Shown here one piece after another: positions 36,757 through 39,627 of a stretch of 64,000 bases of DNA (within the stretch, counting starts at the first letter, position 1; every line of letters starts with the position of its first letter). Position numbers and translations under genes: made by a program. Source of the DNA: Escherichia phage vB_EcoM_SP1; the sequence record MT682709.1. One strand, written 5' to 3'. The notes under the pieces are model-generated. The model did no database searches and was not told the DNA's origin. It was given only the letters and a program-made list of their open reading frames with translations.

Positions 36757-37350
36757 ATGAACACACTGAAGAAAATTGTTGAGTTTATTCGCACTAAACT
36801 TGGTTCTGCTATGGCTAAAAATCTATCTGTTGAAGAACAGTATACTGCTGCAGCAGCAAAACTGCTTGATAAAATTAAAGATCTAAAAACTGCTTCTATT
36901 AAATCTATTAATGAAGAAAAACGTATTCGTGAACTTGTTATCGAAAAGAATCGACAAGCCGAATCAAAAGAGCGTGAAATTCGCAAGCTTCTTTCCGAGG
37001 GTCAAGATGTAACAATGCATGCTAAACTCGGTTTGCTATATCGTCGAACAGCTGAACAGTTGACTACTAAGGCTGATGGTTATGCTGAAATGCGAATTGA
37101 AATCGCCAAGAAAGTAGTTGAGTTAGATGATGCTCGCCAAGAACTTGCAGTTAAATTGGAATATATCCGTGAAACTCGTGCGGCAAATGCCCTTGGAATT
37201 AGTACTGCTGATGATGTAGTTGAAATCGCAGCGCTAACTAAGGTTGATATTGAAGATACTCTTGCTCGAGTTGAAACCTTTAACGGTAATATTTCTGGGG
37301 TTGAAACCACTTCTGCTGATGTTCAGGAATATATTAATTCTCTGAAATAA
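36757..37350 (+). CDS. coiled-coil protein (possibly PspA/IM30-like)
   Basis: 197 aa, heptad-rich; family assignment is weak pattern recognition only. Confidence 0.5.
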
Positions 37351-37354
37351 TGAT

Positions 37355-37370
37355 AAGGGGCTTCGGCCCC
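37355..37370 (+). terminator. stem-loop (weak terminator)
   Basis: AGGGGC-ttcg-GCCCCT after the stop; poor T-run. Confidence 0.4.
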
Positions 37371-37391
37371 TATTACTTGGAGTAAATAGGA

Positions 37392-38000
37392 ATGAGAATG
37401 CAAAATGATTTCAATTCAATGTTTGAAGAGTTCCAAAGACAGGTTGATGTTCCAGACCAATTACTGAATGCTCTTAAACGTATGGCAGAAGGACGTAATT
37501 ACTATTGGGGGTCTTCATATGAAACTGATGAAAGTCTTTCTGGAAGATTTTATAGAGGTAAAAAGTCTTTAATACGCCCTGGAATACTCATTAAAAGTAT
37601 TGAATCAATTCATTCATTGACATGTGATTTTGATGTTGAATTTACTGATTTCATTTCTCCTGAATGGACAGTTTGTTATTTAAATGACGATTATGATTAT
37701 CTTGGCATTTATAGTTTAAGTGACGCGGGGTTTAGACGTAATTTACAAAAGTCAAATTTATTTTATATTGATACTACGGTAAAATTTCAGGGAAAGAAAT
37801 ATTTCTTTACTCTTATAGTTGACTCTGAAACAAAATATGAAAATAAGCGTATTCTTAGTAAAAAGAATATCTTGACTATTATTGATGATCTTTTTGATAA
37901 ATTCGTGGAAAATCCCAGTTTTGAAAGCGATTTATTACTAGAAAAATTTGTTAAGGAATGTAGAGAATATGTCAAAGCCATCACTATACCTTCCAAGTAA
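37392..38000 (+). CDS. hypothetical protein
   Basis: 202 aa; C-terminus KFVKECREY overlaps the RBS and start of the next gene. Confidence 0.55.
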   Translation: MRMQNDFNSMFEEFQRQVDVPDQLLNALKRMAEGRNYYWGSSYETDESLSGRFYRGKKSLIRPGILIKSIESIHSLTCDFDVEFTDFISPEWTVCYLNDDYDYLGIYSLSDAGFRRNLQKSNLFYIDTTVKFQGKKYFFTLIVDSETKYENKRILSKKNILTIIDDLFDKFVENPSFESDLLLEKFVKECREYVKAITIPSK

Positions 38001-38361
38001 ACCTTTGAAGTATGAACTAAAGCGCCAGATAATTTCTACCGATGTATTAATGGGTCCTGTGGTAGCTGTATCATTTGTGATTCTGCTGATTGCTGGAATG
38101 GTTATAGACGTTATGACTGATATTGAATCCGGTGTAATATTTGGAGCAACGTTAATTCTTCCATTAATAATTCCGCTTTTATTAGTACCTGTAAATTGGG
38201 TAGGATACTGGTATCAAGGAAGACATTATCGTAAACGTGTACGTGAATGGAAAGCTCAGTGTAAAAAGATTAAAAAGGAACACCAGCTTAAACTAGATAT
38301 GTATGAATTTAACGAAATTATGAAATTTGTTAAGGAATCACGATGCAAAAGCCAAAACTAA
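37969..38361 (+). CDS. small two-TM membrane protein (paralog family member)
   Basis: ATG 37969 inside the junction motif; the track ORF 37948 extends upstream. Confidence 0.5.
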   Translation: MSKPSLYLPSKPLKYELKRQIISTDVLMGPVVAVSFVILLIAGMVIDVMTDIESGVIFGATLILPLIIPLLLVPVNWVGYWYQGRHYRKRVREWKAQCKKIKKEHQLKLDMYEFNEIMKFVKESRCKSQN

Positions 38362-38705
38362 ATAAAGTCAAATATTCGTTTCCCGAGGCACTATTAATTC
38401 TTGCCGTGTCAGTATTTGCAGCTCTTGCTGGTAGTCTTATTGGATTAATGATTGACTGTATTATTTTAAACATCGATGGTTCAGCAATTATAACAGAGGT
38501 TTGGAGTGAACTTCGTTTTACTATAGCGATTTCATTATTTTCATTCTTTGGTACCATGCTATATTTTCATTATGATAATTTTAAAATAAATTGGCAAAGA
38601 AAAAAGGATTACAAAATACAATTAAAAGAATATAATAACTACATGTCTTATATTGAAAATGAATCAATGAAAGAGTTTGTGAGTGATTGTAGGAAAATCA
38701 AATGA
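38343..38705 (+). CDS. small two-TM membrane protein (paralog family member)
   Basis: 120 aa; C-terminal EFVSDCRKIK. Confidence 0.55.
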   Translation: MQKPKLNKVKYSFPEALLILAVSVFAALAGSLIGLMIDCIILNIDGSAIITEVWSELRFTIAISLFSFFGTMLYFHYDNFKINWQRKKDYKIQLKEYNNYMSYIENESMKEFVSDCRKIK

Positions 38706-39190
38706 TTTTAAAAACTCGCTGGTATGATTTAGATGATGGGGATGATGGCATTCCAGTTGATAGAGTTGACTGGAATGGCTGTTCCGAAGATATGAAAAAT
38801 TTGTTGATTAGGGAGTTTAGAATGGGATATCAACCAGTTAAGCCATCTACTATAACAGACGATAAATTCGTGTGTATTCATAATGGTCGCGCTAAGTTAA
38901 CGAACGCTGATTGGTTCACAGATAAAATTATGATTCTGTGGTATATTATTAGTCTTCCTGTGACATCATTCGTATTTTACTTTTTTATAAAAAATCCAAT
39001 GGACAGAATAGGAGATTGGATTCTTTTAACCATACTTGTTAATATTTTTACAGCAGCAATATTATCTGGGATATGGTACACGTTCATTGAAATGCCATGG
39101 CGGCTACGCAGACAACAAAAGATTTTTGATGAAAAGAAATATACTCAAAATTTAAATAACTTTATCACCGAATGCAGGAAATTAAAATGA
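38702..39190 (+). CDS. small membrane protein (paralog family member)
   Basis: 162 aa; C-terminal NFITECRKLK. Confidence 0.55.
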   Translation: MILKTRWYDLDDGDDGIPVDRVDWNGCSEDMKNLLIREFRMGYQPVKPSTITDDKFVCIHNGRAKLTNADWFTDKIMILWYIISLPVTSFVFYFFIKNPMDRIGDWILLTILVNIFTAAILSGIWYTFIEMPWRLRRQQKIFDEKKYTQNLNNFITECRKLK

Positions 39191-39627
39191 AAACATTATC
39201 AGCTGGTATTATCTTTATGACAGAAGATAAAGATTTATTCATGGGACGGGTTACTGGTTCTCGTAAGCCTGGAATGATGGCACATCGCTGGGATATTCCA
39301 AAGGGCCGTGTAGAAAATTCTGATTTGAGCGCACTAGATGCAGCACGAAGAGAATGCTTAGAAGAGACCGGTTTTAGCAATTATAATCCAGACCTTCTAG
39401 AAGACCTAGGTGTATTTAAATATTCTAGTAATAAAGACTTACAGCTGTTTTATTATACGATTCCAGTAGAGCATGAGATGTTTAGAAATTGCCATTGCGA
39501 GTCTTATTTTGAAAATAAAGATGGTGTTATGATTCCAGAGATGGATGCTTTTGCTCTTATTCCTCGTACTCAGTGGCAATATGTGATGGGTCCTTCACTT
39601 TATCGAATAATGAACAGCCTCTTTTAA
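39187..39627 (+). CDS. nudE: Nudix hydrolase NudE (e.1)
   Basis: Position immediately upstream of e; Nudix-like motif GRVENSDLSALDAARRECLEETG; start may be 39172. Confidence 0.7.
   Translation: MKTLSAGIIFMTEDKDLFMGRVTGSRKPGMMAHRWDIPKGRVENSDLSALDAARRECLEETGFSNYNPDLLEDLGVFKYSSNKDLQLFYYTIPVEHEMFRNCHCESYFENKDGVMIPEMDAFALIPRTQWQYVMGPSLYRIMNSLF

Follow-up and report, generated by a model that had tools for sequence, protein, structure and literature searches.

A C-terminal tail shared by successive proteins of the T4-type e.5 to e.2 gene chain, with the next gene's ribosome-binding site in its codons

Here we describe a chain of four overlapping genes (e.5, e.4, e.3, and e.2) in a 64-kb stretch of DNA from a Tequatrovirus, referred to below as the window, whose products share a short C-terminal tail. 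The tail motif is conserved as a peptide, its codons contain the Shine-Dalgarno sequence (SD) of the following gene, and whole gene cassettes are present or absent in related phages exactly at these junctions. The explanation that we regard as probable, taken as a whole, combines selection on the tail as a peptide, recruitment of its codons as an SD, recombination at the junctions, and a role for the tail as a docking helix. One soluble protein (e.5) and three small hairpin membrane proteins would be made from tightly overlapping cistrons that feed into nudE. The T4 genes e.5 to e.2 have been listed as hypothetical for about thirty years, and the shared tail gives an experimental handle on them.

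The gene order in the window is e.6, e.5, e.4, e.3, e.2, nudE, all on the + strand. The original prediction had pointed to the T4 e region for comparison, and the four ORFs are indeed direct orthologues of T4 e.5, e.4, e.3, and e.2 (older names msp4-msp7), arranged as in T4 between e.6 and nudE/e and with 80-91% amino acid identity to the T4 proteins (e.5 91%, e.4 85%, e.3 80%). For e.2, identity is approximately 87% as measured over the T4 fragment; the gene is intact in the window, whereas it is split by a frameshift in laboratory T4. Strong PHROG matches were obtained for the chain (phrog_2607, 2604, 2330, and 2203), and precomputed Pfam families exist for the e.5 homologues (PF26876) and an e.4 homologue (PF26873, Phage_T4_Y06O). 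The features of the locus are as follows.

36757..37350, + strand: e.6, a helical protein of 197 aa, highly conserved and encoded immediately before the chain
37356..37371, + strand: GC-rich UUCG hairpin between e.6 and e.5, annotated as a stem-loop/terminator in T4 record L13089 and in the G2540 and PhAPEC2 records
37392..38000, + strand: e.5 (T4 msp4), soluble, 202 aa, no TM segment; 32-nt overlap with e.4
37969..38361, + strand: e.4 (msp5), 130 aa, two TM segments (residues 31-49 and 55-73); 19-nt overlap with e.3
38343..38705, + strand: e.3 (msp6), 120 aa, two TM segments; ATGA overlap with e.2
38702..39190, + strand: e.2 (msp7), 162 aa, a soluble N-terminal domain followed by TM segments at residues 78-96 and 106-129; ATGA overlap with nudE
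39187..39627, + strand: nudE (Nudix hydrolase), last gene of the coupled chain; Pfam NUDIX E = 1e-13

The true start of e.5 is likely the ATG at 37398 rather than 37392, since AGGA lies 6 nt before ATG 37398 and L13089 annotates the second ATG. Similarly, nudE likely starts at 39187 and not at 39172, because ATG 39172 has no SD before it and the position corresponding to 39187 is where orthologues in other genera begin. The UUCG hairpin upstream of e.5 has no T-run after it on the + strand.

The original prediction of three two-TM membrane proteins with basic C-terminal segments holds for e.4, e.3, and e.2 by Kyte-Doolittle hydropathy, with the second TM segment of e.3 (residues 57-75) falling below the 1.6 threshold and assigned by inspection. 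The same analysis found no TM segment in e.5. By the positive-inside rule, e.4, e.3, and e.2 would be hairpins with both ends in the cytoplasm. All four proteins may end in the same short cytoplasmic helix, L-x-x-F-(I/V)-x-(E/D)-C-R-(K/E), with e.4 as a Cys-less variant that carries an additional internal copy with Cys. The tails and the SDs within their codons are located as follows.

37947..37964, + strand: e.5 tail F-V-K-E-C-R (ttt gtt aag gaa tgt aga); AAGGAA at 37953-37958 is the SD for e.4
38245..38268, + strand: internal tail-like copy in e.4, E-W-K-A-Q-C-K-K, aligned by BLASTP to the e.3 tail EFVSDCRK
38326..38343, + strand: e.4 tail F-V-K-E-S-R, Ser in place of the motif Cys; AAGGAA at 38332-38337 is the SD for e.3
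38676..38693, + strand: e.3 tail F-V-S-D-C-R; AGGAAA at 38691-38696 (Arg-Lys codons) is the SD for e.2
39161..39178, + strand: e.2 tail F-I-T-E-C-R; AGGAAA at 39176-39181 is the SD for nudE

The earlier description of all four tails as F(V/I)x(E/D)CR is accurate for e.5, e.3, and e.2. The e.4 protein instead ends in KFVKESRCKSQN before its stop codon (FVKESRC), with Ser at the Cys position, so only three of the four tails carry the CR pair. Its internal copy is kept as EW..QC or EW..KC in the e.4 proteins of Mosig-, Dhaka-, and Jiaodavirus. Nor do all of the ORFs end at the motif as had been stated, since e.5 and e.4 continue for 11 and 5 codons past it. The peptide F[IV]x[ED]C[RK] occurs three times in the six frames of the 64-kb window, always as the tail of e.5, e.3, or e.2; random sequence from a first-order Markov model contained it 0.24 times on average and never more than twice in 200 trials.

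Across nine Tevenvirinae groups (Tequatro-, Mosig-, Dhaka-, Jiaoda-, Kanagawa-, and Mosugukvirus, two unclassified phages, and one metagenomic lineage), F-(I/V)-x-x-C-R is kept, and the tail is the best-conserved segment of each family alignment. For example, the invariant columns among 34 e.5 homologues are M1, N98, C190, and R191, with F186 conserved at 90% or more. The remote e.5 homologues, at 17-40% identity, carry F[VI]xxCR in 19 of 19 cases, and their invariant columns are M, N, F, C, and R. Such strict invariance of C and R in e.5 homologues, along with one Asn, could also mean that the Cys-Arg pair is a chemical site and not a docking surface, for instance a catalytic or ligand-binding dyad, a metal site built from several tails, or a target of modification. 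The L..F...C..(I/L) pattern read from the tail sequences would place the Cys in a short coiled-coil core, and the chain geometry, through the coupling it suggests, ties these genes to the Nudix hydrolase NudE. However, all e.4-type proteins examined have S, I, V, or M where the Cys would be, and it is also missing from several other membrane members, yet F-(I/V)-x-x-x-R is kept in these proteins; no enzyme family or fold was matched. We consider a chemical site unlikely. Our best guess at the function of the tail is a shared docking or bundling helix, which would join e.5 and the membrane proteins to each other or to a common partner.

Outside the tail, the proteins have little detectably in common. 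The original prediction had named membrane proteins that cannot be aligned to one another as part of what would refute it; they align marginally, e.3 with e.4 only, and e.2 matches through the tail alone. With shallow hhalign profiles of 4-8 sequences each, e.3 and e.4 aligned (E = 4.5e-4) at 92.6% probability with the tail and 33% without it, and the comparisons of e.3 with e.2, e.5 with e.2, and e.5 with e.3 gave tail-only matches of 15-21 columns. At the same profile depth, nothing was detected for any pair except e.3/e.4 once the tail was removed. By sequence comparison, the protein bodies are not detectably related apart from e.3/e.4. The four genes might nonetheless be old tandem duplicates, with the tail as the last remnant of their ancestry, possibly gene-converted and functionless itself. 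The e.3/e.4 alignment spans TM2, the basic stretch, and the tail, the two proteins have an M-x-K-P-x-L start in common, e.4 contains its second, internal tail copy, and e.5 and e.4 share 16 identical nucleotides in one genome, all of which fit such an origin. But these 16 nt are no longer identical in 2 of 12 Tequatroviruses, and Mosigvirus lacks the identity altogether, so concerted evolution is not the general rule. In addition, e.5 is a soluble protein and e.2 carries an additional N-terminal domain, with bodies dissimilar to the others, and a neutral remnant is not expected to stand out in all nine groups as the segment of each family that is best conserved. Duplication with a functionless tail thus seems quite unlikely to us, and selection on the peptide would be what maintains the tail.

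The nucleotide sequence of the tail has a second task. AAGGAA or AGGAAA lies 5-10 nt before each start, within the upstream ORF, and the duplex with the 16S rRNA 3' end amounts to -4.2 to -6.1 kcal/mol. The SD cores are invariant in 12 Tequatroviruses, as are the 30 nt before the e.3 start. A general elevation of nucleotide conservation at the junctions within Tequatrovirus was rejected, as it held only for the e.4-to-e.3 junction (junction windows at the 2.5th to 64th percentile in comparison with the rest of the region). A next start 17-23 nt after the Phe codon goes with an SD at motif positions 3-4 (AAG GAA, GAG GAA, AAG GAG, or AAA GAG G), and one 26 nt after it with AGG AAA at the Arg-Lys codons. 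The ribosome-binding site visibly migrates within the motif as the tail length changes, and the distance to the start may decide which codons serve. Because each following start falls within the tail or immediately behind it, the tail codons would have been recruited as the downstream SD. The embedded SD accounts for motif positions 3-4, the K/E at position 3, and the AGG Arg codon, and dual coding would fix motif position 3 and the Arg codon in this way.

The original prediction saw in the conserved tail, in part, a by-product of a repeated SD-plus-start junction. One half of this stands, in that the SD is written in motif codons and sets the K/E of position 3 and the AGG of the Arg codon; as the cause of the tail, it does not. 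A nucleotide-first origin, with the tail mainly a by-product of the junction, would explain why AAGGAA and AGGAAA cores invariant in 12 Tequatroviruses sit inside the motif, why K or E stands at position 3 exactly where codons 3-4 form the SD and AGG encodes the Arg exactly where codons 6-7 do, and why e.5 and e.4 have 16 identical nucleotides in common. The SD, however, takes up no more than two of the six codons of the motif, and not the same two at every junction. The F, I/V, C, and R codons vary synonymously (TTT/TTC for F, ATT/ATC/GTT/GTG for I/V, TGT/TGC for C, and AGA/AGG/CGT/CGC/CGA for R). The motif also survives where 28-60 nt separate the Phe codon from an SD downstream of it: the next start is at +40 nt from the Phe codon in the e.5-like genes of Dhakavirus and, as calculated from coordinates, at approximately 60 nt in KLB31. 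Finally, F, C, and R stay invariant among e.5 homologues of 17-40% identity. A by-product as the main cause is very unlikely on this evidence and is already largely refuted, and we prefer dual coding, in which the tail is probably selected as a peptide and its codons have been recruited as the SD of the downstream gene.

The four junction strings quoted in the original prediction are all present in the window, with aaatttgttaaggaatgtagagaatATG at 37944-37971 (e.5 to e.4) and aaatttgttaaggaatcacgATG at 38323-38345 (e.4 to e.3). Instead of the single repeated sequence that had been claimed, they form two pairs.

37944..37959, + strand: junction repeat copy 1, AAATTTGTTAAGGAAT, exact 16-nt direct repeat
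38323..38338, + strand: junction repeat copy 2, AAATTTGTTAAGGAAT, exact 16-nt direct repeat
38685..38705, + strand: junction e.3 to e.2, gattgtaggaaaatcaaATGA / GATTGTAGGAAAATCAAATGA, left partner of the e.2 deletion breakpoint
39170..39190, + strand: junction e.2 to nudE, gaatgcaggaaattaaaATGA / GAATGCAGGAAATTAAAATGA, right partner of the e.2 deletion breakpoint

The 16-mer AAATTTGTTAAGGAAT occurs in the window only at 37944 and 38323, and a 21-nt pattern common to the remaining two junctions is confined to 38685 and 39170; neither was matched in 100 shuffles, both patterns having been picked after the data were seen. The similarity of the junctions is well above chance, and similarity no greater than chance was the other part of the outcome that the original prediction had named as refuting it. 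The unit of tail, SD, and start would recur as short direct repeats.

Overlap of a stop and a start at ATGA, with the downstream SD inside the upstream ORF, is a general feature of bacterial and T4 operons. The chain resembles such coupled cistrons in that its genes lie on the same strand with overlaps of 4, 4, 19, and 32 nt and with each SD inside the upstream coding sequence. As predicted, each next ATG lies inside or just after the motif, with overlaps of 32 nt (e.5/e.4) and 19 nt (e.4/e.3); only e.3/e.2 and e.2/nudE have the 4-nt ATGA. Overlapping starts are common on the + strand of the window (9 ATGA overlaps and 6 one-base overlaps), so the coupling geometry itself is ordinary, and the shared tail is the unusual part. 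Unlike in other coupled cistrons, the SD codons here encode a peptide motif common to successive, otherwise unrelated proteins, and the SD shifts between motif positions 3-4 and 6-7 with tail length. Translational coupling along the chain may be expected from this geometry. Folding of the four junctions found no stable hairpin (z-scores +1.2 to -1.8) and no structure that would occlude the ribosome-binding sites; these sites are therefore open, and each gene could also be initiated independently. None of the four junctions overlaps a promoter-like site, and the promoter annotations of L13089 lie only upstream of msp1-msp3.

The junctions are also where genes are lost and gained. Several phages lack e.2 (T2, PST, ZN18, PP01, Ozark, GRNsp7, and others), and such phages give single-piece matches to a hybrid junction in which ..GATTGC is joined directly to AGGAAATTAAAATGaaaaca. 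Dhakaviruses occur both with and without e.4, many of them without, and here the breakpoint lies in the repeat A(A/G)GAGGTTC..AATG and leaves the hybrid tail ..EYAKEVQNGTA before the stop. In both cases, gene presence or absence coincides exactly with the repeated junctions, and the indels are bounded by repeats with short shared homology (9-16 nt). Since the e.2-less junction is identical in 3 of 3 phages compared, one ancient deletion that spread through recombination in the flanks would account for the e.2-less phages as well as recurrent events would. In Tequatrovirus, e.4 is present in approximately 498 records (tblastn). A synthetic e.5-to-e.3 hybrid query gave two-piece matches in all 25 matches listed (with 478 further records beyond them), and so no Tequatrovirus without e.4 was found among the matches listed. 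Recombination between the repeats could add or remove a whole cassette while the frame, tail, and ribosome-binding site of the neighbor stay intact. A peptide motif, a ribosome-binding site, and a recombination breakpoint would then fall on the same 20 nucleotides.

Junction-mediated cassette shuffling is known in T4-type phages from PeSLs, which are intergenic promoter-plus-terminator units (PMC2839356; Comeau et al. 2014, PMC4122927). Neither paper mentions e.2. In both systems, non-essential genes of a plastic region are bordered by short repeated elements at their junctions, and gene presence or absence maps onto the repeats. The junctions from e.5 to nudE differ from PeSLs in being coding sequence plus a ribosome-binding site, 9-21 nt long, with neither a sigma-70-like early promoter nor a stem-loop terminator, and would extend such shuffling to coding junctions. 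That the junction is kept primarily as a recombination linker, a coding-region counterpart of PeSL cassettes for swapping membrane proteins with the peptide incidental, is improbable: the exact mapping of e.2 and e.4 presence or absence onto the repeats, the range of 1 to 4 membrane-protein genes per chain between genera, and the documented PeSL shuffling in T4-type hyperplastic regions (PMC2839356, PMC4122927) speak for it, but junction DNA differs between genera where the peptide is retained, the repeats are just 9-16 nt, the junctions have no promoter or stem-loop, and selection for evolvability is a weak force next to selection that acts on the peptide itself.

Searches of e.5, e.4, e.3, e.2, and e.6 against Pfam, PHROGs, NCBIfam, PADLOC, and PDB sequences gave no match informative on function, a word-based protein search with e.3 returned close relatives only, and the remote e.5 alignment has no conserved stretch. 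No function is recorded for e.5 to e.2 in the records examined, and a literature search on the e.x genes and on phage PspA in T4 found nothing relevant and no paper on the shared tail. The GenBank labels "sulfurtransferase," "host specificity protein," and "DNA primase" on chain genes are mutually inconsistent and supported by no search, and they were rejected. An AlphaFold model of e.5 from a 34-sequence alignment reached a pLDDT of 57.7, with low confidence in the tail helix, and its Foldseek matches in the PDB (protein tyrosine phosphatases and kinesins) had TM-scores below 0.3 and were treated as meaningless.

One candidate partner of the tail is e.6, the predicted model of which has a long alpha-helical hairpin followed by shorter helices. 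Based on this model, e.6 is possibly a PspA/Vipp1/ESCRT-III-like hairpin. A sequence-based assignment as PspA was unsupported: none of eight e.6 homologues matched PspA_IM30 or any other Pfam profile with E values as high as 10 allowed, a comparison by hhalign with a hand-entered E. coli PspA sequence gave 0.3% probability, and an e.6 profile search of PDB sequences returned nothing, so we claim only structural resemblance. [quoted passage not shown] The phage locus is similar in that e.6, PspA/Vipp1-like by its model only, adjoins genes for small inner-membrane proteins with predicted cytoplasmic C-terminal helices. It differs in that no sequence similarity of the phage proteins to PspA, PspB, or PspC was found, and in that the chain adds a soluble member, e.5, with the same tail. 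By analogy, e.6, e.5, and the variable two-TM proteins could form a phage module for membrane maintenance or remodelling, in which the shared helix L..F(I/V)..CR would dock e.5 and interchangeable adaptors on e.6 or host PspA and cassettes would plug in and out; we put this forward tentatively and think it unlikely as it stands. Since the tail codons also carry the next ribosome-binding site, adaptors of such a module could be plugged in or out without disturbing stoichiometric co-expression. In many Tevenvirinae, a soluble protein ends in the same tail as between one and four small, unrelated membrane proteins, and their genes always lie beside the strongly conserved e.6 with its PspA/Vipp1-like model.

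The region of the chain feeding nudE is gene-for-gene collinear with T4 e.6, e.5, e.4, e.3, e.2, nudE and e (msp3 to msp8 are the names of these genes in the old T4 record L13089), and its members are already known T4 ORFs. The surrounding 2.4 kb aligns with over 500 Tequatrovirus genomes, at identities of 90-97.5%.

Chain genes and their C-terminal tails, each tail ending at the stop codon
37392-38000, + strand: e.5, ORF of 202 aa, tail ..LLEKFVKECREYVKAITIPSK
37969-38361, + strand: e.4, ORF of 130 aa, tail ..IMKFVKESRCKSQN
38343-38705, + strand: e.3, ORF of 120 aa, tail ..MKEFVSDCRKIK
38702-39190, + strand: e.2, ORF of 162 aa, tail ..LNNFITECRKLK
From 39187, + strand: nudE ORF

The four junction strings of the original prediction, which combine codons of the F-(I/V)-x-(E/D)-C-R motif with the next gene's Shine-Dalgarno sequence (SD) and start, are all present in the window. 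Rather than one repeated sequence, they form two pairs: a 16-mer is common to the e.5 and e.4 junctions and a 21-nt pattern to the e.3 and e.2 junctions, each found nowhere else in the window. The CR ending expected of every tail is present in e.5, e.3, and e.2, while e.4 has Ser in place of the motif Cys. Likewise, not every ORF ends at the motif, as e.5 and e.4 extend 11 and 5 codons beyond it, giving overlaps of 32 and 19 nt with the gene that follows. Coupled cistrons that overlap and carry the SD within the upstream ORF are a standard arrangement, and with nine ATGA overlaps on the + strand of the window, overlapping starts are ordinary here. A six-frame scan of the 64-kb window finds the pattern F-(I/V)-x-(E/D)-C-(R/K) three times, in the tails of e.5, e.3, and e.2, against a mean of 0.24 and a maximum of 2 in 200 random sequences from a first-order Markov model. 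The tail and junction observation is real and non-random.

We compared the locus in Mosigvirus (PhAPEC2), Dhakavirus (EcWhh-1, JS10, VR5, and IMG/VR contigs), Jiaodavirus (KP179), Kanagawavirus (KLB31), Mosugukvirus (PM2), two unclassified phages, and one metagenomic contig. In every group, e.6 is followed by a soluble e.5-like protein and, after it, by between one and four small two-TM proteins, each with a version of the motif at the C-terminal end (for example RFIAECREYAKEVQN.., and, at the stop codon, ETFIKECKS, DFIEECRK, EFIKYCRERVQK, AWIRSCRK, FFIDDCRRNKNA, EQFIESARKK, and ELFIRNVRRK). Across 34 aligned e.5 homologues from four genera, between-group identity is only 17-21%; M1, N98, C190, and R191 are invariant, with F186 conserved at 90% or higher. 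Searching 1.84 billion representative proteins with an e.5 profile returned 28 relatives, and all 19 of the remote full-length ones read carry F(V/I)xxCR near the C-terminus, with M, N, F, C, and R again invariant.

The original prediction had read the tail as partly a by-product of the ribosome-binding site. This holds for the K or E at motif position 3 and for the choice of the AGG codon, but not for the motif itself. Each conserved residue is encoded by synonymous codons across groups (Phe TTT/TTC; Ile/Val ATT, ATC, GTT, GTG; Cys TGT/TGC; Arg AGA, AGG, CGT, CGC, CGA), and among 12 Tequatroviruses no SD core varies, yet there are synonymous changes inside the motif. The SD also shifts relative to the motif from junction to junction. 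Where the next start lies 17-23 nt after the Phe codon, the SD falls in codons 3-4 (AAGGAA, GAGGAA, AAGGAG, AAAGAGG); with a tail longer by two residues, which is the case in Tequatrovirus e.3 and e.2, it falls in the Arg-Lys codons (AGGAAA); with still longer tails it lies downstream of the motif, and in KLB31 gene coordinates place the next start about 60 nt downstream. Synonymous variation, the shifting SD, and the invariant F, C, and R of remote e.5 relatives together argue that the ribosome-binding site does not explain the motif, which appears to be selected as a peptide.

The tail also appears to act as a module carried by bodies that are largely unrelated, since most profile matches vanish once it is removed and e.4 has an internal tail-like copy (EWKAQCKK, conserved in other genera). 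Profile-profile comparison gives e.3 and e.4 a probability of 92.6%, the match covering TM2, the basic stretch, and the tail; without the tail this drops to 33%. Matches of e.3/e.2, e.5/e.2, and e.5/e.3 cover only the tail (15-21 columns), and nothing is left when it is removed. As originally described, e.4, e.3, and e.2 each have two TM segments by hydropathy and a basic C-terminal segment; e.5 has no TM segment by hydropathy. The N-termini of the three are also basic and the loops short, which fits a cytoplasmic location of both ends.

The L-x-x-F-x-x-x-C-x-x-(I/L) spacing would fit one face of an amphipathic helix, and e.5 residues 182-196 are drawn as a helix in a low-confidence model. Our working explanation is that the tail may serve as a shared cytoplasmic docking or bundling helix. 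Sequence searches of Pfam, PHROGs, NCBIfam, PADLOC, and PDB gave nothing informative on function, the e.5 model was poor and its fold search gave nothing meaningful, and the junctions showed no RNA structure. Directly upstream, e.6 (36757-37350) models as a long helical hairpin with best Foldseek matches to Vipp1/PspA/ESCRT-III; no sequence-level match to PspA was found. Its conservation (61-88% identity) is far above that of the chain genes, and its C-terminal end, TTSADV(Q/E)EY(I/L)xSLK, is near-invariant. Should the tail prove to be a docking element of a phage Psp-like system, the finding would gain interest.

A better account than the original prediction is a selected peptide tail whose codons also carry the ribosome-binding site of the gene that follows; repetition of the tail would offer in-frame breakpoints for cassette loss and gain. 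Yersinia phage ZN18 (contig L008) is without e.2, and its e.3 tail, FVIDCRKLK, leads straight into nudE. The junction, ..GATTGC AGGAAATTAAAATG aaaaca, joins the left half of e.3-to-e.2 to the right half of e.2-to-nudE, with the crossover within the shared TGCAGGAAA. This hybrid matches in a single piece in T2, PST, PP01, Ozark, GRNsp7, and many others, and in two pieces in T4-type phages; GRNsp7 is without e.2 despite 97.7% identity to the window in e.5 DNA. The absence of e.2 may be a single old event that later spread, since all e.2-less junctions read are identical. Among Dhakavirus-type loci, e.4 is present in three (L011, L013, and L020, the last being Yersinia phage P8, which is not formally classified) and missing from six (L004, L010, L012, L014, L015, and L016). 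In this group, A(A/G)GAGGTTC..AATG is common to the e.5-to-e.4 and e.4-to-e.3 junctions, and five of the six without e.4 have the hybrid tail ..EYAKEVQNG(T/A)A, VR5 (L015) being the exception. No Tequatrovirus without e.4 was found among the matches listed in a hybrid-junction search.

The nearest described concept is the PeSL cassette, whose junction repeats mediate gene shuffling in T4-type phages; PeSLs are intergenic promoter-terminator units, unlike the chain junctions, and the e.5-e.2 locus is absent from both papers (PMC2839356, PMC4122927). Literature searches found no description of the shared tail.

Intact in the window, e.2 is frameshifted in laboratory T4, where it is split, and in T4T (L001/L018, T4 e.2a/e.2b), and e.5 is split in the ZN18-like contig (L008:2543-3158). 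These broken copies suggest that phages can do without any single chain gene in the laboratory or in some natural settings. GenBank product names for these genes are mutually inconsistent (among them "sulfurtransferase", "host specificity protein", "DNA primase", "phosphoserine phosphatase", "head outer capsid protein") and look like automated mislabels.

Further tailed proteins were seen elsewhere. In Mosigvirus, a 101-aa two-TM homologue of RB69 ORF133c (L003:5509-5814, tail NLENFIKECRGK at the stop codon) is located some 2 kb downstream of the chain, directly before a 228-aa conserved gene, and the SD (GAGGAAAA) comes after the motif. In Klebsiella phage KP179, the 290-nt "gap" between gp111 and gp112 is taken up by a 98-aa two-TM ORF that lacks annotation (L019:3851-4147, tail AWIRSCRK) and has ATGA overlaps on both sides; its counterpart in a metagenomic contig (L032, 4258-4554) is called as a gene.

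Missing from the window, a second family of small soluble proteins arranged in tandem comes after the chain in Mosig-, Dhaka-, Kanagawa-, and Mosugukvirus, as well as in the unclassified Klebsiella phage CP-p-KP-21072 (L003:3357-4151, L004:3351-4358, L015:2030-3052, L027:3560-4634, L028:4189-4733, L029:3383-4433). Members mostly end in W(V/I)SSSxxC, others in ..SSMxC or ..PSSC, and in many the stop TAA is fused to GGAA (TAAGGAA), the next gene's SD. Here too, a conserved protein end is linked to the ribosome-binding site of the gene that follows.

The e.5 start region (37388-37405, AGGAATGAGAATGCAAAA) and e.3 start region (38333-38350, AGGAATCACGATGCAAAA) are alike at 15/18 positions (83%). 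Judged by SD spacing, e.5 more probably starts at the ATG at 37398 than at 37392, in agreement with the L13089 annotation. The T4 annotation starts nudE at the ATG at 39172, inside the e.2 tail, giving 151 aa. Since that ATG has no SD before it, while the one at 39187 is preceded by AGGAAA at 5 nt and gives an N-terminus that agrees with nudE of other genera, the product is likely the 146-aa form.
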